Positions 761-52,740 of a stretch of DNA of 64,000 nucleotides are shown in pieces (the stretch's first letter is position 1; the number at the start of each line of letters is the position of its first letter). Below the pieces are notes generated by a model. The model was not told where the DNA came from. It saw nothing but the letters and a program-made list of their open reading frames with translations, and made no database searches. The stretch spans positions 76,632,001 through 76,696,000 of the forward strand of contig OZ024741.1 in NCBI GenBank assembly GCA_964016885.1, read 5' to 3'. This stretch comes from Eledone cirrhosa (Eukaryota). The position numbers and the translations under genes were made by a program.

Positions 761-807
<47 letters not shown>

Positions 808-813
<6 letters not shown>

Positions 814-1145
814 CAGGAAAGAAGGTTTACATGGTTTGCTATACAAAAAAGTTTTTAATCACATAGCTTACATTTGTTTCACTGAACTGGTATGTCTAGA
901 GATCGCTATCCGCTTAATTTTGCGTTACTCGATCGCCAATACAGAATTATAACCAGTCAGATCTTCGGAGCATGCGAGAATGCTCCGAAGATCTGACTGG
1001 TTATAATTCTGTATTGGCGATCGAGTAACGCAAAATTAAGCGGATAGCGATCTCTAGACATACCAGTTCAGTGAAACAAATGTAAGCTATGTGATTAAAA
1101 ACTTTTTTGTATAGCAAACCATGTAAACCTTCTTTCCTGATTTAT
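808..1145. repeat. Perfect fold-back palindrome, 166-bp arms, 6-nt loop; likely an inverted Penelope-type pseudo-LTR
   Basis: 808-973 is the reverse complement of 980-1145; it starts at a (TA)n tract and the related sequence runs on to the next (TA)n near 1286. Confidence 0.92.
982..1087 (+). ncRNA. Type I hammerhead-ribozyme-like motif with long stem II (mirror copy on the minus strand in the left arm)
   Basis: gct-CCGAAGA-t-ctgactggt...accagttcag-t-GAAAC-aaat-GTA-agc; the core has U4->C. Confidence 0.55.
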
Positions 1146-1283
1146 TATTACTCCAAGTGTTTACAACATAGGAATTACGCCATACCCGCAGCATCACTAT
1201 GAAAACGCCTTGTTGAGTCAAACCAAGTCAAGCGTTAATATCATCCACTACCTGGAATACCATAACTGGACTTCACCTAATCC

Positions 1284-1321
<38 letters not shown>

Positions 1322-1789
1322 TAAAATAACAGATTAAAGTTTAAGCAAAGAATCGCTGCTTTCACCCTTAACGGGATCTCCTGAAACTAACAAAGTCAAT
1401 CTGTAAACGCAGAAGTGGATATTTCAAAAAACGTTGCAACCGGAGGAAGACAGGAAGACGATACTTTGGTTCGTGGAAACGTTCCCTGGCAAAGAACGGG
1501 AAAAAGCGAATATAATACGTCATTAATAGGAGCGGTGAAAAACAATTACACGCAAAGACAGAACCACGTTTATGGTATAAAAGAGGTCGTAGACTAATGT
1601 TCTCTTAGGTGGCTCATGGAGACGTTCTCTGGCAATGAACAGAAAAAATGGTGATAATACGTCATATGTGGAGCATGGAGAACCATATTTGCTCTACGGT
1701 TCTTATATATTTGATATATATTTATCCTTATCGAGCCCTCTTTGGATTTTAGTCTTCAAATTTATTATTATTACTATTATTATTATTAT

Positions 1790-1850
<61 letters not shown>

Positions 1851-1867
1851 TATACATACACACACAC

Positions 1868-1934
<67 letters not shown>

Positions 1935-2272
1935 TATACATACACACACACGTATATATATATATATATATATATATGGATGTTATGGAGATGGTGATGA
2001 TGGTGATGATGGTGTGTCTGTATGGAGAAAATGCATAAAAAAATTAATTCAAACAAATCAAGGGAAACTAAATTTATCTGCAAACATCATTTTCTTTCTT
2101 TTTTTATTTTTATTTATTTTGAACCATATATATATAGTTTTTTTTAAACTTTTTGTTGAGGTTTTGATTTTTTTAAATTATACATTTGTTTTACATTTTC
2201 ATTTTTTTCTTTTTTTGTTGTAAAGGACCTGGAAGGAAACACTGTTATGTAATTAATAAAATTTGATAGCAA

Positions 2273-2328
<56 letters not shown>

Positions 2329-2499
2329 CAAACAAACAACAAACAATTAATCAATCAGACAGACAGAATGAAGAACACAAGACCTGGAAAATAGTTACTT
2401 AAATATAGCCATGACATTAATTTCATTACTTTGGATAAAAGGGCAAAGTCAACACTTGTGAGGTTCGCGCTCAGAATAGTGCAAATAATAATGCAAAAA

Positions 2500-4960
2500 T
2501 GAATAAAATAATAATTTCTAACATAGGAACAAGACCAAAAATTTGAGGGTAGGTGTTTGTCAGCTAAATAAATCTTAGTACATGACTGGTACTTTATTTT
2601 ATTGACCTTCAAAGGATAAAAGGCAACATTGTCTTCAACTGGATTTGAAACATGACAACATATTCCAAGGAATTTTGTCTGATACTCTAAAGCCAAAATT
2701 TGGGTGAGAAGAACAACCAATTATATGGACCACAATGGAAGGATAAAAGGCAAAGTTGACCACAGCAGGAATTAAACACAAAATATAATTTAATTATGCA
2801 AGGTATTTTGTTCAAAGCTCTAAAGTATCTACTAGTTCAATAATAATATTAATAATTATTTCTACTTTGAGTACAAGTCCAGTAATTTGAAGGGGGGAGA
2901 GGAAAGTTGATTAAATCGACCCCAGTGTGTTACTGGTACTTCATTTTAATAATAATATTAATAATGATTTTTTATATAGGCACAAGGCCAGCAATTTGGG
3001 GGAGGGGAAAGTCGATTAAATCGACCCCAGTGAGTGACTGGTACTTTATTTTATCGACCCCATAAGGATGAAAGGCCCAGTTAACCATGGCAGGATTTGA
3101 ACTCAATTAATAAAGGGCCGTAACTCTATGCTGCAAAGCATGGCGTCCAACTCTCTACCGATACTGCCAATCCATCGCCCTATAATAATAATAATTTTAA
3201 AAATTACATTGTGAAATGGTCATGTAAGCAATTAAAAAACACACACATAAAACAGTTACATTCATTTTGACTATTAATCCAAAGCCTTAACAATTCTGCC
3301 TATTTGTCAATAAATGAAGTACCAGTCCAGTGGTAGGATCAATTCTTCCTCTATCTTTCTTTACCACTTTCTCTCATCATCTCTCTTTTTCTTTCTCTAG
3401 AAATCATGCCTGTGTTATGACCTGGAGAGGGATTGGCTCTACTAGGTTTAAAATATTCAAGGTATGACATATTTAAGGATGGGATCCTACACCTCCGTTT
3501 GGTGTTAAGATCCCTTTACCCTTGCCACTTCACTTTGTATATGATAAAGTGTAAAAAAAAAATAATGTTTTGTCACGCTTTTGTGACTTGGTCCCTGACA
3601 CAATTCCAATTCTAATATGATTCTTCCTTGGCAATGTAACTACATCAGTTTCAACACACTGATCGAAGTTAGTGTGTCTTCTCAAACAAGAACAACTGTG
3701 GAACAATAATGATTTATTTATCTATTTTTATCTATTTATTTATTATTTCTATAATAATAATAATAATAATGTTTCTACTTTTGGCACAAGGCCAGCAATT
3801 ACCCCAGTGCATTATTGGTGCTTTATTTTATCGACCTCGTAAGGATGAAAAGCAAGGTTAACCTCGGCGGATTTGAACTCAGAACATAAAGGGTCATAAC
3901 TCTATGCTGCAAAGTCTGATGTTCTACCGATACAACCAAACCAGTTTCTGATTCAGGCACAAGGCCAACAATTTTTTTGGGGGAATGGGAAAGTTGATTA
4001 AATCGACCCCAGTGTATTACTGGTGCTTTATTTTATTGACCCTGTAAGGATGAAAGGCAAAGCTCACGTCAGCGGGATTTGAACCCAGGACATAAAGGGC
4101 CATGATTCTATGCCGCAAAGCATGGTGTCTGACGCTCTACTGATACTGCAATAATAATTGTTTCTACTTTAGGCACAAGGCCAGCAATTACCCAGTGCAT
4201 TACTGGTACTTTATTTTATCGACCCCGTAAGGATGAAAGGCAAAGTCAACCTCGGCGGGATTTGAACTCAGATCGTAAAGGGACGTAACTATGCTGGAAA
4301 GCATGGCATCCGACCCTCTACCGATACTGCCAATCCACCGATACTGCAATAATAATGATTTTGTGCAAGTTTCTCTCCAAAATAATACATACAAATATAT
4401 ATATGCACCCAAACATATACACACACTCACAGGCTGTAAACTGAAATTTCTGGATTATTTTAGCAATTTTATAACTACATGGTATATCACCTCTTAACAT
4501 TGATGAGCTTGCTGTCTCTTGACATTTCTAGTTGAGACATGGGAGCAGCTCGTACAAACAAAACAAAGGCAAAACTTAACAACTGCAATAATATTAATAA
4601 TAAAGATTTCTAATATAGGCACAAGGCTAGTAATTTGGAGGGAGGGGAAAGTCGATTAAATTGACCCCAGTGCATGATTGGTACTTTATTTTATCGACCC
4701 CGTAAGGATGAAAGGCAAAGTTAACCTCAGCAGGATTTGAACTCAGACCGTAACTCTATGCTGCAAAGCATGGTGTCCGACTCTCTACCGATACTGCCAA
4801 TCAATAATAATAATTTAAAGCCACAACAATAATAATCGTTTCTAACATAAGCACAAGGTCAGAATATTGAGGGAGGGGATAGTCAATTAAATCAACCACA
4901 GGACATGACTGGTACTATATTTCAGCAATCCCAGAAGGATGAAAAGTAAAGTTTAATTTC
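2500..4960 (-). mobile_element. Cluster of about 9 full or partial copies of a tRNA-derived SINE (Nin/Deu-like central domain)
   Basis: Repeated unit; the minus strand has A box TGGCAGTATCGGT, B box GAGTTCAAATCC, the block GCCTTTCATCCTTACGGGGTCGATAAAATAAAGTACCAG and an (ATT)n tail. Confidence 0.88.
3401..3461 (+). CDS. Candidate internal exon of an unidentified plus-strand gene (NHACVMTWRGIGSTRFKIFK)
   Basis: Long polypyrimidine tract plus ctctag, donor AAG|gtatga; only one frame is open (phase 2-0). No family recognised. Confidence 0.4.
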
Positions 4961-5268
4961 ATGAGAATAACAACAACAATAGTAACAAAAATAAAATTAG
5001 GTACATTCCACAAAATTACCATATAATTGCAAGGATCTGTAAATATTTTACAGTGAATTCTCCCATAATAATTGTTAACCTTGAACATATTTATATATGT
5101 TTTCCAAGATACACTGAATTATTTTTTGAAGAAAGGAAACTCTTGACATATTTCTTTAACCACCAATAACAAAAGTAATAATTTCTCACAATGACACAAA
5201 ACCCACATATGTGTGTAAGTATATATACATATATGCTATTGTTACATAATTTTTCAGGAAAGAATATT

Positions 5269-5352
5269 CTTGCCTGAAAGATAAGCAACACTACCATGTA
5301 CAGAGTCTCAATGACCTTTGCTAGAGTAGGCTTTGAAACCTTAGGTAGCAAG
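5269..5352 (+). ncRNA. Type I hammerhead-ribozyme-like motif with long stem II
   Basis: Stem I cttgc/gcaag, core CTGAAAGA (one extra A), stem II aagc..ctac/gtag..gctt, GAAA, stem III acc-tta-ggt, GTA cleavage triplet. Confidence 0.6.
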
Positions 5353-5459
5353 CAACTGTGTTGAGAAATTATTTATAGTTATATTTTGGCTCTGTATTTA
5401 ATATATATATTTTTCCTTTATTCTACAGAAACCCATGACACTACCCTACATTACACCGG

Positions 5460-5557
<98 letters not shown>

Positions 5558-6284
5558 TATGTGTATATATCTAGGATGTCTGTCTGTACATATATATATA
5601 TATATAGTCTGAGACTATGGTAGATGACATTTGCCCAAGATGCTGTACAATGGGATTGAACCTGTTACCATGTGATTGTAAGACCTATTTCTTAACCACA
5701 CAACTCTACCTTTGCTTTTTATTCTCTTGGTAATTAATAAAACAAGTCCTAATAATATACTAGGGTATGTTTAATCCACAGTATACCCCCTTCAAACTTT
5801 CTGTTCATTAACTGACATTAGAAATAAGTATTTAAAAAGAACAGTAGATTGGAAGAATTTAGTAGAGTACCAGATAAATATGCTTTCTGATATTTAGTTG
5901 TTACCCTTTACATTCACAGTTTGAATCCAGTCGACTTTGCCTTTTATTCTTCTGGGAGGGTCAATTAACTGGGTACCAGCCAAGTACTGTTCCCTTAATA
6001 CAAAAAATTGACACACCCAGCCTTTATTAGAAATCAATATTAAAGATTAAAGAAAAAAATGAAGAAATACTAACAGTAACAATAACTAAATATGACAACA
6101 AACAAGATGATAATGATACCATTGTATGAAATAAATGTAGAAATTGTAAAATTCATGAGCAAGTGAACATGGGATATGAAAAGAAAAAGAAAAACAAGAA
6201 GAAGAAAAAATAACAGAAAATAGCCATGATTATTGAGGAGGTTTAGAACTGAAAATAGGCATGATTGATTATAGGATGGCTTCA

Positions 6285-6790
6285 TTACTGAAAAATAGCT
6301 ATGACCATAGGATACTTTTATAACTGGAAAATAGTTATGACCATAAAATCATTTTATTACTGGAAAATAGCCATGACATAAGGGTAGTTTTATTACTGGA
6401 AAATAGCCATGAGATAAGGGTTATTTTATTACTGGAAAATAGTCATGGCATAAGGGTTATTTTATTACTGGCAAATAGCCATAACATAAGGGTCATTTTA
6501 TTACTGGAAAATAGCCATGCCATAAGGGTTATTTTATTACTGGAAAATAGCCATGACATAAGGGTAATTTTATTACTGGAAAATAGCTATGACATAAGGG
6601 TCATTTTATTACTGGAAAATAGCTATGACATAAGGGTCATTTTATTTCTGGAAAATAGCCATGACATAAGAGTAGTTTTATAGCAAAGTACAAATATAAC
6701 AATAGGTAGTTGTTTTCAGTAGAAAATAGCCATGACAATACAGTATGTAGCTTTACAGTAGAAAATAGCCATGACAATAGGGTTGATTTT
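6285..6790. repeat. 36-bp minisatellite (ttttattactggaaaatagccatgacataagggtNa), about 11-13 copies with degenerate ends
   Basis: ctggaaaatag recurs every 36 nt (e.g. 6360, 6540). Confidence 0.9.
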
Positions 6791-7784
6791 ACAACAATAA
6801 CAACAACATATTTTTAATTTGTAGTCACTACAAAATGACAATTTTGATATATTGAGTTTCAAATTATTTATCCAAATTAGGAAGCATTGAAGATAAAAAT
6901 TGTTTCTTTTTTATTCGTTTTTTTAAAATCATTATTATTATTATTATTGTTAGTATTACAGGCACAAGTTTGTTTCTCCCCCACCCTTTTATTTTACAAT
7001 AATGATTAAAAAAATTGTTCCTAGTAAAATACAATGATAGGAAATTAAAAAGATTGTTTTAAAAAAATGGTTTACAAATTTTAAGGCTTTAAGAAGAATT
7101 ACTGTACCAAGGCATTCCAAACTTTTGAAAAAGAAAAGAAAAAAACAGCCTTGTATTTGGTATACGAGATAAAATGCCCACATATATATATATATATATT
7201 TTTTATACATAGCTCAGATGGACAAAATTATCTTGACAAAATGCCAAAAAGTCCTTTGACCACATTGATATAACATACTAGACAAACCAGCCAGAGAGAG
7301 AGAAAGAGAATCAGTATATGTTTTTGTTTTCTTCGACTATTAGAAATAGAAGCCAAATTTCCATTGAATCACACTCTAACACCTTAAAAATATAAGAATA
7401 CATGGAATAATGTAATCCAGTATACACTGTGCTTAGAAAGAAAGAGAAGACAGATGGTTATGGCAGGAATGTCTGTCTGCTCAACCAGGACCAACTTAGA
7501 GCTAAACTCACACCAATTTGTATTATTGTATTTTTTTGTAGAATACAATTTTACTGGGTGTTTAGAAAGCCAAACAAAATCCCATAAACTATTTTAATTT
7601 AAACAAATCGTTATCATAAATAATATTTACAATGTGTTTTGCTTTTCAATTAGAAACAAGAAATAAGGCAAAAATGTTCATATGAACTACCCCAAGAAAA
7701 ACAAGCCAAAACTTAAATATATAAAAGAGTATTTAAATCAGCTGAAGTTATGTACACCTTACCATATATTTTATATATATATAT

Positions 7785-8393
7785 ATATGAATGAAAATAG
7801 ACCGAGAAACAGGAATGTTCATCCTCAGTAGTCTGCTGATTATCATTGGTATTTCTTCGCATTAAAGGCTAGATACCTAAAATCAGTGCGAGCAATAACT
7901 AAATAAAGTTATCAGGACAGAGCGAATTGGAAGAGGAAAGTGAACAAACAACATGGTAGTAATGCAACGTAAAGAGAGGAAAAGAGAGACAAGTCAATGA
8001 ATCTTGTGGGCTTAAGTCCGACAAATCAAATGACGAGAAGAGGCAGACACGTCCGAGCCACGTGAAAAGTGAGAGAGAAAAGAATTTCACACATTCTTTT
8101 CTCTCTCACTTTTCACATGGCTCGGACGTGTCTGCCTCTTCTCGTCATTTGATTTGTCGGACTTAAGCCCACAAGATTCATTGACTTGTCTCTCTTTTCC
8201 TCTCTTTACGTTGCATTACTACCATGTTGTTTGTTCACTTTCCTCTTCCAATTCGCTCTGTCCTGATAACTTTATTTAGTTATTGCTCGCACTGATTTTA
8301 GGTATCTAGCCTTTAATGCGAAGAAATACCAATGATAATCAGCCGACTACTGATGATGGACATTCCTGTTTCTTGGTCTATTTTCATTCATAT
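7785..8393. repeat. Near-perfect fold-back palindrome, 301-bp arms, 7-nt loop
   Basis: 7785-8085 is the reverse complement of 8093-8393 with about 5 mismatches; flanked by (TA)n tracts. Confidence 0.92.
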
Positions 8394-8434
8394 GTTCACA
8401 TTCACAACAACGCAGCACGCCATTTTTTCATTCA

Positions 8435-8488
<54 letters not shown>

Positions 8489-8574
8489 TATAGATATACA
8501 TATATATATATACACACACACACACATATATATGTATATATAATAGCTAATACAGGACTAGAACTGTTTTATTC

Positions 8575-8634
8575 AAATGGCTTTCCTGATGATTTCCTTT
8601 GAATGAAACAGTTCTAGTCTTGTAGAAGCCATTT
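8575..8634 (+). ncRNA. Type I hammerhead ribozyme motif
   Basis: Stem I aaatggctttc/gaagccattt, canonical CTGATGA (8586-8592), stem II ttc-cttt-gaa, GAAAC, GTA triplet at 8622-8624. Confidence 0.72.
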
Positions 8635-9589
8635 CTATATTAAATATTGTATATACTCTACTATGTATTGAGTATCTTAATGATTTGTATTCACGTTTGC
8701 CACTGTCCATCTCTATTTGGGGGTGGAGTTATAACTTGATTGATAGGTGGGGAAATATATTGGAGAAATGGAAGAAGGTAACAACAAAACCAAAGTAAAA
8801 ATTTAAATCAGAATAATAAAAATAGATGTTGAACATTCAATAGAATTAATAAAGGTAAGGATAAAACAGTCATAGAGTTGGTGTGGTTAAAATTCTTTTT
8901 GTAGAAACAATCACTAATCAAGATTGTATTTTATGGGTTGGGAGCTTGAGATATCATGACGGCAAATGTATTTGTGCCTCTATCTTAACTGGCTAGTGTA
9001 TATGCCTATGTCTTTGTTCTAAGATGTGGATCTAAGTATGTTGCCAAAAAAAGATTATATGGAAATGCATGTTTTCTTGGGGTTGTATTTGTGTGTGTGT
9101 GTGGAGTGTGTGTCTAATTTGCATAATAGTGTTTCTCTTTTTGGAAGAATATTCGTAACATAAGGTAAGTTTCTGTATGGATTATTACATTTGTATTATG
9201 GGTGTATGGCATATGCATTTAGTGGTGTGTTGTTTCATTTGCTAATGTTGAAAGGTGTAAGTATTAGTGTCTAGGTCTGTGGTATCAGCATATTTATCAC
9301 AATGTATACATTACTCTAAAAGCAATTTTTGGGCATTCTAATTGGTGTATTACAGTATGTGGGGATGTATAAGTTCTATAAGGTATGTAAAGGTGGTAGT
9401 AGTGGGGGTTGCTTTCACTTAGGTACCATGCGTGATGTTGGGTATGTATTTAACATGACATGTGTTTAATTTATATAGGCTATGGGTTTTAGGTAGGTTT
9501 TTGGTATGTTGTGCTTGCGAGCATAATAGTTACAAAGTTTCTTACCCTCTGAGACCATGTAAGAATTGTATGTGGTTACGGTATGATTT

Positions 9590-11753: not shown

Positions 11754-12669
11754 GTATGTATGTATTACGCATTGGAACCTGAAACCACTTTGATGCAAAG
11801 TGAATTTCTTCACCATACACATGTGTGTGAGTCCACTGACTGGAACCAATAAAATAATAAAAGTATATATATATATATACACACAATGAGTTAAAGACTT
11901 TGTTGATATGTAATCAACTGAGTTATATTCATAACAGATACGAAGCACTCAACAGTTAAAATTTATTTGGAGTATTATGATAATATAGTAATAAACGAAA
12001 GATATAATAGAGATGCTATATATATATATATATATATATATCCACTTCTCAAGTTTTCTTCAAGCAGTGAGCAAAATACAGAATTTGTAGATATTAATAC
12101 ATGAAATGTTCAATGGGTGTGAGGAGGAGAGGGGTTGATTTATTTATGAGTTTAAAACCACATGGAATTTAAATTCAGAGTGCAAAGAGACATAATCAAC
12201 TAATATCAAGGTACTTAGAATGATGCTCTAACAATTCTGCCATGTATGTGTAACATGTGAATGACACTAAATGAGAGACAGAGAGAAGTCAGTGTAGAGT
12301 TTTATAATATATTATATACACCCAAATGAAGACTGAGGCGCAAGAACATCACATGGCTTAATATCATATACGACTTTACAAGGAATCATTTAACTTTATA
12401 AGATGTCACATAACTTTACATTACATTATAAGGTATTATATGACCTTACATCACATCACAATGACATCAGTCATTCACATATCTACAGGGGGGGGGGGGG
12501 GGGGGGCAAATTCTGCCTTTGATGCTTGGAAAGAGGTTTATAGTGGTAGGGTTGAAGGTTATAGTTGATTGAATCAACTTTAAAATATGACTGGTACCTA
12601 TTTTATTTGGCTTAGAGTCACGAAAAGTAAAAATCAACTGCAGTGGGATTTGAACTCAAAAAGCAGGAC

Positions 12670-13057
12670 AAAACTAAATAATTGTTTCTACTTTAGACAC
12701 AAGGCCAGCAATTACCCAGTACATTACTGGTACTTTATTTTATCGACCCCGTAAGGATGAAAGGCAAAGTTAACCTCGGCAGGATTTGAACTCAGACTGT
12801 AAAGGGACGTAATTATGCTAGAAAGCATGGAGTCCAACCCTCTACCGATACTGCCAAAACTAAATAATTGTTTCTACTTTTGGCACAAGGCCAGCAATTA
12901 TCCCAGTGTATTACTGGTACTTTATTTTATCGACCCCATAAGGATGAAAGGCAAAGTTAACCTCGGCGGGATTTGAACTCAGACCATAAAGGGCCGTAAC
13001 TCTTTGCTGCAAAGCATGGTATCCGACCCTCTACCGATACTGCCAAAACTAAATAAT
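12670..13057 (-). mobile_element. Head-to-tail dimer of the same SINE
   Basis: Two copies of about 187 bp, with aaaactaaataat at both ends and at the junction. Confidence 0.9.
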
Positions 13058-45050: not shown

Positions 45051-45614
45051 TTCATTGTATTGAGTTCTTTGTTATATAGTGTTGTTTACATGAGGAGAGG
45101 GAGGGAGATAAAAAGGAGGGGAAATAGAGGGAGAGGGTAAAGGGTAAAAGGAGAGATGGTGAAGAATGTAGTTTGCTGATTAAATTAATATATAAATTGT
45201 TTGTATTAAAGCTTGACAAGGAGCAGATGAGCATGAAGTATTTGTTCAAAGCAATATCAGAAATAATGGCTCTACAGAACATACATTGAATAGACGATGA
45301 TTAATCAGCAGAGAGAAAAAGAAATGTAAAGAGAAATAAGGTGGAAACAAAACACATGAAGATTGATCTGTAACAATTTAACTTATTATGTTGTTGATGT
45401 TTAGCCCCAGGTCAGACTTGATTACACAAATCTATTATAAAAGACATTCCAGTAATGGCCACCCAGTCATTTTATGAATAAGACTACATTATCCAATGTG
45501 TCAATTCCTTTCCCAAAGGAGTAGTGTGTGATTTGAGTGAGAATCGGTTGCTGTTTCTAGCAGATAGAGTGACCACATGAAGTTTCCCTTATATCATTAT
45601 TTTTGTTATTGTTA

Positions 45615-46360
45615 GGGCAGTGGATTGGCAGTATTGGTAGAGCACTGGACATCATGCTTTGCAGCACAGAGTTACGGTCCTTTACAGTCTGTGTTCAAAT
45701 CCCACCAAGGTTAGCTTTGCCTTTCATCCCTACAGGGTTGATAAAATAAAGTACAAGTAATGCACTGGGGTCGATGTAATAGACTTTCCCATCCCTTCAA
45801 ATTGCTGGTCTATAGTAGAAATCATTATTATTGTTATTGTGGGATTTGAACACAGAATGTGAAAGGACGTAACTATGCCACAAAGCATGCTATCTGATGC
45901 TCTACTGTTACTGCAAATCCACCACACTAATAATCATAATATTAATGGTTTCTGATTTAGGAACAATGCCAACAATTTTAGACGAGGGAAAGTCAATTAA
46001 ATTGACCCCAGTGCATTACTGGTACTTTATTTATCGACCCATGTAAGGATGAAAGGCAAAGCTAACCTCGACGGGATTTGAACTCAGAACGTAAAGGGCC
46101 ATAACTCTATGACGCTAAGCATGTTGTACGACGCTCTACCGATTCTACCAATCCACCACCCTAGTAATAATAACAATAATTGTTTTTACTTTTGGCACAA
46201 GGCCAGCAATTGTCCCACAGCATTACTGTTGCTTTATTTTATCGACCCCGTAAGGATGAAAGGCAAAGTTAACCTCAGCAGGATTAACTTTGCCTTTAAT
46301 CCTTACGGTGTTGATAAAATAAAGTGCCAGTAATACTCTGGGACAATTGCTGGCCTTGTG
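45615..46360. mobile_element. SINE cluster with mixed orientations, ending in a SINE fold-back (46196-46360)
   Basis: Plus copy 45615-45830, minus copies 45840-46160, then two SINE halves in inverted orientation centred at 46278. Confidence 0.85.
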
Positions 46361-46724
46361 TCATAACAACAACAACAATAACAACCTATTATTGTGGTGG
46401 ATTAACACAGTCATTAAAGCATTGGACAAAATGCCTCTTTATGTTCCAAGTTCAAATCCTGCCAAGATCAAATTTGCACTTCACCCTTGCTAGATCTATA
46501 AAATAATGTGTGACTTATGAACTAGGGTCAATTTAATTTATTAACAATTGAACCCCCAAAATTTCTGGCCTTGTGATTATTTTAGAAAAAAAAAATTATT
46601 TTTAAGGCAGGGGATGAGATAATCAGTAGAGTGTTGAACAATGTGCATTGTGGTATTTAGTTACATCTGAGTTCACTTTGGGGCTCAGTAAAATAAAGTG
46701 CTAGTAAACAATTTTGGTTGATCC

Positions 46725-47906: not shown

Positions 47907-48263
47907 TATCATCTCATTTTTACAGCTGAGTAAACTGGAGCAATGTGAAATAAAGTGTCTTGCTCAAGGAAACAACACATCACTCAGACTGGGTGATGTG
48001 TTGTTTACTTGAGCAAGACACTTTATTTCACATTGCTCCAGTTTACTCAGCTGTAGAAATGAGATGATAGGGACTGGGGTGCCTATCATTCCACTGCAAA
48101 GTGGACGTGTAGGTGCCACGGCAAAAAAGCACCCAGCACTCACTGTAAATGTGGTTGGTGTTAGGAAGGGCATCCAGCTGTAGAAATCAAGCCAGAATCA
48201 GTTCCCGTCCCACCCTTGTAAGCAGGGAAAAGCGGACGTAAAATGAAATGATGATGATGGTGA
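47907..48263 (+). mobile_element. Headless copy of the second SINE family with a 5' inverted duplication (81-bp-arm palindrome 47907-48069)
   Basis: 47907-47987 is the reverse complement of 47989-48069 with about 3 mismatches. Confidence 0.88.
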
Positions 48264-51119: not shown

Positions 51120-52740
51120 ATTTATAATAGTAAAAAGAATAGGAATTCCTGTGTGGGCACATTGAAACTATTTCCAGTTTCCAATTCAATAAATTTAGAT
51201 GAAACTTAGTTATTAAGAGACACTCAGTTAAACACAAATTACATTTTAGGTTACCTGGCACATAGGACTTTGCAGCTTTCAAAACAAACTAAGAAAGGGA
51301 GTAAATGACGTTAGAATTTTTTAAATCCTATACATAACTGGCAAGCGAGGTTGAATTCTTCAGTTTTACATTCCTAAAAGAGTGAAGGTGGGTGTAGTAC
51401 CATGATTTAAAACTATTTGATGTTGCATCGATGTAAGTTTTAGTGCCATTAGGTGTGGAAACAGTGCACTGATATACTATGCTAGATACAAGGCAATTAC
51501 CATTTAGAGGGCATCCTTCCAGGTATCTGCAATTGCAGTTCTGGTTAGTTATTGGGTTAGCCTTAGCATTATATACAGTATTAAGGTTATTAAAAGGGTT
51601 TTCACTTTGACAAGGGTAAGTCTTACTCCTAGTTTTCCATGTAGTTGTTTTGATAGAGCTAGCTAAATTGTCTGATATTATATTATACTTACTCAGTTTT
51701 GCACTGTTACTAGAGGCTAAATAATCTGCTAAATTAAGAGTTGTTAAGAAGCAAAGTTTAATAGTATTTTTATTTAGTAATTTATGGTACTTATGTGATT
51801 GGGGAAGTTTTTAATCAATTATACTAAAGAAACATTTAGGTATATTTGAAGCTATATGCTTACTATAAAGTGGATTAAACCATGTGGTGGGCTATCTACA
51901 GTTTGTCTTACTACCTAAAGTTGAGGTATTAGTATCTAATGGTTGGAAGTTGACGGATGGAAAGCGAGAGTTCAGTTCATTTTTGTTGCTATAAGAATTA
52001 TTATTAGATTTAGGGATATTAAGGAGCGTACTGGAGCTTATCACATGAACTTGTGTCAAATTTGAAAATTTATGTGGGTGAAGTCTATGCAGTATTATGC
52101 CTCTCCATCTATCCTTATTTAAATTCTTATCTTTACAGTTGTTTTGGTTACTACTAGTTATATTTCTGTTATTATTCTCATTCATATCTATTGTTGTTAG
52201 CATATATGCACTCCTTCATACTCATACTATCCTTATTTGTGTTAGATGTGATAATTACACTCTTAATAGAAGAAGCATTAATTTGGTCAATAGCTTTATT
52301 ATTATTGGTTCGATTCAATATTTTGATCATACTTAGATCTACATAATGTGCTATTGTAAGTAATTATATTTTAATTTCTACTTCTACAGTTATTATTATC
52401 TATGTTGTACTGGATTTTCTCATTATAACCTGATCTAGTTAACTCCTCATTGTAATATTGGGCATTTTGGTTAAATGCATAGTCTGAAGATTCTATTGGA
52501 TACATTTTTTTAATTATAGAGTTAAGTATAGACTTAGGGTGGTTTGAGAAGTTATTTATATAGACTAGGTTCTTTACCTGGATTAAGGTAAGGTTTATAT
52601 AGCCTGGTATTTAGTTCAAAGGTGACATCTAGGAAATTAACTACTTTATTATTTATATCTATGGTTATATTTAAGCCACCATCTTTAAAAAAGCCCATGT
52701 AAGTGCTTCTTTGTTCTTTCTGGGCTTCTACTATTACAGT
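51120..52740 (-). mobile_element. Decayed Penelope-like retroelement (RT thumb, linker, GIY-YIG endonuclease)
   Basis: VNFLDVTFEL..LYKPY, SNHPKSIL, TWFNPLYS..SNI, CNC....CPLNGNCL..SIVYQC...TYI, CNLCLTE...CPH; contains stops and frameshifts. Confidence 0.9.

Follow-up and report, generated by a model that had tools for sequence, protein, structure and literature searches.

Introduction

Previous descriptions of Penelope-like elements (PLEs) include truncated copies in inverted orientation, tails on one side only and targeting of TA, and the closest described systems are the Hydra-clade PLEs, including Hydra-1_Obim of Octopus bimaculoides. In the available text of Craig et al. 2021 (PMC8557442), this clade is defined by the RWK, DKT, CxCX5C, GIY-YIG, CxxC and CxH motifs and by the absence of GxKF/Y. 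The sequences analysed here share with it the protein motifs, the (TA)n targeting, a hammerhead in the pLTR, a near-palindromic stem III, inverted truncated copies and a one-sided tail. The families described below are new compared with those set out there. Their unit measures 3.5 kb (family 1), stem II reaches 78 nt, U4C or U4A is fixed, and the tails range from about 65 to 180 nt. The motif of Hydra-1_Obim carries an extra G and has an A-U pair, unlike the U·U found here. The minimal PLE hammerheads treated in the accessible text of Cervera and De la Peña 2014 (PMC4209133) are likewise type I, pLTR-borne and mostly dispersed single motifs, with a palindromic stem III, probable activity as dimers and opposite-strand pairs. 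That text stresses a conserved G10.1-C11.1 pair in metazoan PLE motifs, with an extra nucleotide after A9, and the present genome departs from this picture.

Hammerheads with U·U at the base of helix II are known. Natural U10.1-U11.1 hammerheads are reported in the available part of Perreault 2011, where U·U is the most active mispair. The axolotl retrozyme hammerhead HHR_Amex2, with about 60,000 copies, resembles the present motifs in its U·U and two-pair helix III, and its monomer cleaves to 22%, its dimer more efficiently; unlike them, it lies in head-to-tail 350-bp repeats that yield circular RNA and contain no ORF (available text of PMC7229834). By our count, 14 of the 25 Hydra-clade families in File S2 of Craig et al. 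2021 list U·U, judged by a T at the end of the first core column and at the start of the second (two share one motif), and in the material available these motifs are headed 'canonical' and the U·U passes uncommented. Poseidon_Ac of the green anole, as presented in the available text of Frangieh et al. 2024 (PMC11167929), has two internal reverse transcription start sites and an AT-rich target, and both strands are cut and extended in vitro, with uncleaved RNA as template. It belongs to another PLE clade, and its hammerhead overlaps the start codon, whereas that of family 1 below lies ~380 nt upstream. The available text of a 2026 octopus repeat annotation reports recently active Penelope families and contains neither 'ribozyme' nor 'Hydra'.

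In this study, the hammerhead folds in a 64,000-nt stretch of the Eledone cirrhosa genome (the window) were investigated using a structural descriptor, shuffled controls and searches for related copies. U·U hammerheads cleave in vitro elsewhere.

Materials and methods

The descriptor comprised stem I of at least 3 pairs, a relaxed core, any base at 10.1 and 11.1 (all 16 combinations treated equally) followed by at least 3 Watson-Crick pairs, GAAA, stem III of at least 2 pairs and a UH site. Controls were 40 local dinucleotide shuffles of the window. A genome sample of 1 Mb, made up of one hundred 10-kb stretches at fixed round positions, was compared with 20 shuffles of the whole Mb. Families were searched in the species' own genome (3.0 Gb), and 40 candidates were scored per family. 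The first-look candidates numbered 1600, 421, 1879-3284 and 385 for families 1, 2, 3 and 4, which are not copy numbers.

Results

Hammerhead folds of the window

Five type I hammerhead folds were found in the window by the descriptor, representing four families and one inverted twin, and all five carry U·U at 10.1/11.1 (Table 1). In the 40 shuffles, 2 folds of any type arose, neither of them U·U. The type I architecture, with three helices round the core, GAAA and a UH site, is present by descriptor, by comparison with shuffles and by covariation between subfamilies, and the 10.1-11.1 pair of that architecture is replaced by U·U in all four families. The consensus core C3 U4 G5 A6 N7 G8 A9 occurs in one of the four, family 3 (fold 8579-8631, or 8582-8628 by descriptor, plus strand; CUGAUGA; predicted cut after the GUA ending at 8624). 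Family 1 has U4C (fold 982-1087, plus strand; CCGAAGA; long stem II; predicted cut after the GUA ending at 1084) and its fold 971-866 on the minus strand is the exact inverted twin. Family 2 has one extra core nucleotide (fold 5269-5352, plus strand; CUGAAAGA; predicted cut after the GUA ending at 5347), and the window copy of family 4 has U4A with A6G (fold 1388-1338, minus strand; CAGGAGA; site CUU). None of the 150 Rfam matches listed, out of 196 for the window, is to a hammerhead family.

Table 1 Features of the window that bear on the hammerhead-carrying elements
Feature	Position	Strand	Basis or remark
Family 1 inverted arm, short 3' end, twin hammerhead 971-866	808..982	-	166-nt perfect inverted repeat
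Family 1 direct arm, pLTR 3' end, hammerhead 982-1087, long tail	980..1284	+	Descriptor, genome copies
Family 4 arm, short 3' end, hammerhead 1388-1338	1322..1687	-	Descriptor, genome copies
Family 4 opposite arm, tail only	1685..1792	+	Matched to 1762; end at AT-rich tract read from sequence
Family 2 copy, hammerhead 5269-5352 and tail	5265..5445	+	Descriptor, genome copies
Family 3 inverted arm, truncated, decayed	8526..8578	-	82% to family-3 3' half; folds back on direct arm
Family 3 direct arm, short subfamily, starts at stem I, part of tail	8579..8679	+	
(TA)n target tracts	766..810, 1285-1321, 1793-1977, 5469-5606, 8438-8542		
Broken Hydra-type reverse transcriptase/endonuclease relic of another family	51121..52710	-	tblastn 37-54% to family-1 protein, E 5e-43

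An earlier note on this DNA had proposed type I folds at 982, 5269 and 8575 and a fourth on the minus strand. The descriptor recovers all of them, with no U·U fold among the shuffles, and the note's fold coordinates and three GUA sites are correct, as is its reading of U·U in place of G10.1-C11.1, which holds in five folds of five. The inverted twin 971-866 escaped that note and was found by the descriptor on the minus strand. The fourth fold (1338-1388), which the note took to be degenerate, is not a decayed copy, since the same core is common to copies that are 98-100% identical. Of the checks that the note named, the comparison with dinucleotide-shuffled sequence places the real folds far above shuffles in both the window and the 1-Mb sample, and covariation among copies is seen as stem I pair swaps and compensatory changes in stems I and II.

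Mismatches at 10.1/11.1 across the genome sample

The 1-Mb sample contained 40 distinct folds, against 5 in its 20 shuffles, none of the 5 being U·U. Positions 10.1/11.1 were U·U in 18 of the 40, C·A in 5, A·G in 4, A-U in 4, U-A in 3, A·A in 2, G·U in 2 and G-C in only 2, so that 29 of 40 were mismatched. Scaled up from this sample, the whole genome would hold on the order of 10^5 folds, half of them U·U. Short stems and a loose core definition might have been expected to produce chance folds in AT-rich DNA, an explanation of negligible probability that is refuted by these counts, and every fold of the window maps to a repeat family. A different register, with an extra nucleotide after A9 followed by a pair, was also considered and rejected (0 matches with stem III and 1 minimal match in 1 Mb).

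About 20 unrelated hammerhead families occur in the sample, and most of the others are not linked to ORFs. Many have a palindromic stem III too short for closure as a monomer, which points to dimers. Tiny families with a four-base palindromic stem III (GUAC, CUAG, UGCA, CGCG), closable only as dimers, were observed at L176 (2826-2897), L134 (2705), L289 (2599), L307 (8750) and L319 (881). At L153 (5505-7952, minus strand) and L161 (937-3333, plus strand), the 3' end of another Hydra family was read by eye as a C·A hammerhead whose stem II is long.

Families 1, 4 and 2

Families 1 and 4 are young, their best copies being 98-100% identical, and families 2 and 3 are older. In family 1, at least 27 copies are identical over 171 nt, and the same exact motif, with U4C and U·U, is present in 80 of 90 arms. 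Relatives at about 70% identity show compensatory changes in stem I and basal stem II. The inverted arm in the window is 98% identical to the pLTR of an intact element (L103). A C-terminal endonuclease ORF lies upstream of most copies, and 808 open codons are seen in many copies recovered by the protein search. In the copies examined, the hammerhead precedes the start codon by ~380 nt and recurs ~740 nt past the stop codon, thereby flanking the ORF at both ends in a unit of about 3.5 kb, above the size of <3 kb that is a tendency of the Hydra clade in the published description and not a strict limit. The single ORF encodes a 794-aa protein with, by motif, a reverse transcriptase followed by a C-terminal GIY-YIG-like endonuclease (YRDD at 351; LVY..YIG at 673-690). 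RWK and DKT are present, GxKF/Y is absent, and the CxCX5C linker, CxxC and CxH lie at 654, 752 and 780. The protein gave no matches in Pfam or PDB, so that the clade assignment rests on these motifs and on likeness by eye to published Hydra proteins.

U·U was present in 66 of 66 family-4 arms, with U4A in nearly all of them and A6G added in the youngest subfamily. A Hydra endonuclease lies upstream on the same strand, in the expected place, at 6 of 30 loci (L197, L217, L213, L196, L195 and L199), and inverted pieces of it occur in other loci; CxCX5C is also found (L197). Such relics stand ~0.9 kb upstream on the same strand in both families 4 and 3. Copies of family 2 are 79-89% identical to one another, extend at least 550 nt upstream and carry U·U in 27 of 28 arms. 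Its link to a Hydra ORF is weak and consists of a single locus (L065, 39% over 56 aa).

Family 3 and its short subfamily

Among 128 anchors, placed on the 3' half alone, U·U is seen in 82 of the 86 in-register family-3 arms. Stem II is the same in 73 arms, loop II has 20 sequences, and pairs of stem I are swapped between subfamilies. Longer parent copies exist, with a decayed endonuclease ~0.9 kb upstream at 2 of 30 loci; a view of family 3 as a wholly short element was overturned by these parent-length copies. The long 3' end (8655-8679 region; L233) finishes in a small GC hairpin, a candidate start site for reverse transcription.

In the short copies, the 5' end lies at the outer edge of stem I, and the tail is a variant of their own. 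The table of short form against tail variant reads 11/0/5/37 by eye and 9/2/3/39 by automatic parse (p 2.4e-6), in which four rows were misread, with targeted sampling on both sides. Among untargeted copies, 28 of 39 have 5' ends that pile up at stem I, a count confounded by diverged subfamilies, and the argument for a short form therefore relies on a query without upstream sequence, for which 1 of the 30 best matches (direct arms) continues into the family-3 parent. The indication of a cap from an extra 5' G is no more than suggestive, since many cases are explained by microhomology at the junction. The start at stem I, the tail variant and the result of the query without upstream sequence suggest that the short subfamily was amplified separately from an RNA of ~140 nt beginning with the ribozyme.

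The fixed 5' end of this form would also be expected if the folds were non-LTR retrozymes replicating through small circular RNAs; retrozymes derive from pLTRs, and HHR_Amex2 makes circles with the same U·U (available text of PMC7229834). We regard this as very improbable. Head-to-tail tandem monomers without an ORF, which characterise retrozymes, were not what was observed: 86 of 106 family-3 arms are head-to-head, ORFs lie upstream in three families (1, 3 and 4), and one exact pattern for a family-3 head-to-tail junction had no match in the genome. The retrozyme reading is thus largely refuted for families 1, 3 and 4. A circular-monomer model for the fixed 5' end was set aside on the same missing junction, which favours a promoter at stem I over a circle.

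Insertion anatomy

The family-1 insertion at 808-1284 is a head-to-head pair with a 3-nt overlap, a short 3' end on one arm and a long tail on the other, and 1322-1792 and 8526-8679 are similar pairs. In 39 family-3 pairs, the tail was on one arm in 37, on neither in 2 and on both in 0; the queries favoured one tailed arm, and only the absence of two-tailed pairs is therefore informative. A one-arm tail is expected from two priming sites with extension on both strands. Ends at the cut site were found in 0 of 39 untargeted family-3 copies and 3 of 45 untargeted family-4 copies, in a survey to which very short post-cut copies are invisible. The location of 5' ends away from the cut site is consistent with uncleaved templates. 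Standard insertion anatomy of PLEs accounts for the palindromes, the (TA)n targets and the tail on one side only.

A fifth head-to-head element, at 7785-8432, has 301-nt arms, a 40-nt tail on one arm, TA flanks and 3059 candidates in the genome. Its copies recur as partial tandems. The element has a CUGAUGA half core followed by a hairpin but lacks GAAA, and the 1.5 kb around it yielded no ORF; its anatomy is PLE-like without a recognisable hammerhead.

Discussion

The folds of the window are best explained, with a probability of roughly 0.8, as pLTR ends of Hydra-clade PLEs, 5'-truncated in (TA)n, whose U·U is probably inherited and tolerated rather than a new core. This explanation starts from the family identity of the folds, their linkage to ORFs, the head-to-head arms with one tail and the fixation of U·U within families. 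The (TA)n sites, pLTRs, inverted truncated copies and tails agree with the published clade. Against it stand the length of the family-1 unit, the single locus that links family 2 to a Hydra ORF, the two decayed loci that do so for family 3, and minimum-energy folding, in which most monomers fail to adopt all three helices. The earlier note's description of ribozyme-bearing, TA-associated, Penelope-related sequences is upheld, and the contexts that it considered unrelated are truncated 3' ends of related families. The set that it called non-autonomous is mainly otherwise, one family having intact ORFs, and the short form of family 3 fits the term. Of the Penelope relics that it placed at three sites, that at 51.1-52.7 kb is Hydra-type, and those at 9.6 and 32.4 kb gave no match with three PLE-like protein queries. 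The U·U core, suggested there as possibly undescribed, is already in Perreault 2011, the axolotl retrozyme and File S2 of Craig et al. 2021.

Under the Hydra-clade explanation, insertion might proceed as follows. The element's endonuclease would cut both strands of a TA tract, and reverse transcription would begin from each break end at two different internal RNA sites, paired priming being our inference; mostly uncleaved RNA would serve as template. The two short cDNAs would then be joined by microhomology into a palindrome. Self-priming on an antisense template is a published alternative for PLE palindromes, according to the available literature text. Least certain is the role of the hammerhead. 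In tandem pLTR-ORF-pLTR transcripts it might cut slowly, either as a dimer or together with the protein that the element encodes. The palindromic copies of the window would form long hairpins and would not cut.

The fixed U4C, U4A and A6G could mean that the young families no longer cut. The same elements might then carry the hammerhead as a non-cutting structural signal, a protein-binding or promoter-linked fold, a proposal that we consider rather doubtful. It would account for U4C in 80 of 90 family-1 arms, for U4A and the added A6G in family 4 and for the 29 of 40 sampled folds without a pair at 10.1/11.1, and insertion in the anole PLE assay did not require cleavage (available text of PMC11167929). 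U4C lowers activity in vitro, yet it permits viroid infectivity (available part of Perreault 2011), and the viroid ribozyme with this change thus remains sufficient in vivo. Moreover, G5, G8, A9, GAAA, UH and a palindromic stem III are kept over about 20 unrelated families, which argues against a purely structural role.

The U·U pair and the palindromic stumps are already known and are not discoveries. Three findings were not encountered in the literature: the range of mismatches at 10.1/11.1, fixed U4C or U4A in the youngest families (U4A being outside the literature search terms), and the ~140-nt family-3 subfamily starting at stem I. Published supplements may already contain some of the core variants. 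A wider interpretation, offered tentatively and more apt to fail than to hold, is that the Hydra clade escaped G10.1-C11.1, with U4C or U4A also fixed in the families active most recently, activity restored by the element's protein or by dimers, and the family-3 subfamily of ~140 nt acting as a 'mini-Hydra'. About 20 families, with ~10^5 hammerheads, would then have U·U, C·A, A·G or A·A at the base of stem II, and the 'mini-Hydra' would propagate itself, with a transcript starting at stem I, as a head-to-head non-autonomous class unlike tandem retrozymes. These families bear on the role of PLE hammerheads. Protein-assisted cleavage could be studied in the young family, which combines many intact ORFs with fixed U4C and U·U, and the natural core variants, roughly 20 in number, amount to a free mutagenesis panel. 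About three quarters of the motifs would escape descriptors that require pairing at 10.1-11.1.

Other features of the window

The 3' end of a LINE-type reverse transcriptase ORF occupies 1-430 (L031). A very abundant short interspersed repeat, probably an octopus SINE, occurs often as tandem or inverted pairs (2839-3180, 3770-4350, 4610-4810, 12669-13057 and 45596-46366), and an inverted repeat of a different repeat, 81 nt at 96%, lies at 47907-48069. A tandem array of a 36-bp unit, with 11 copies and 88% matches, spans 6284-6681.
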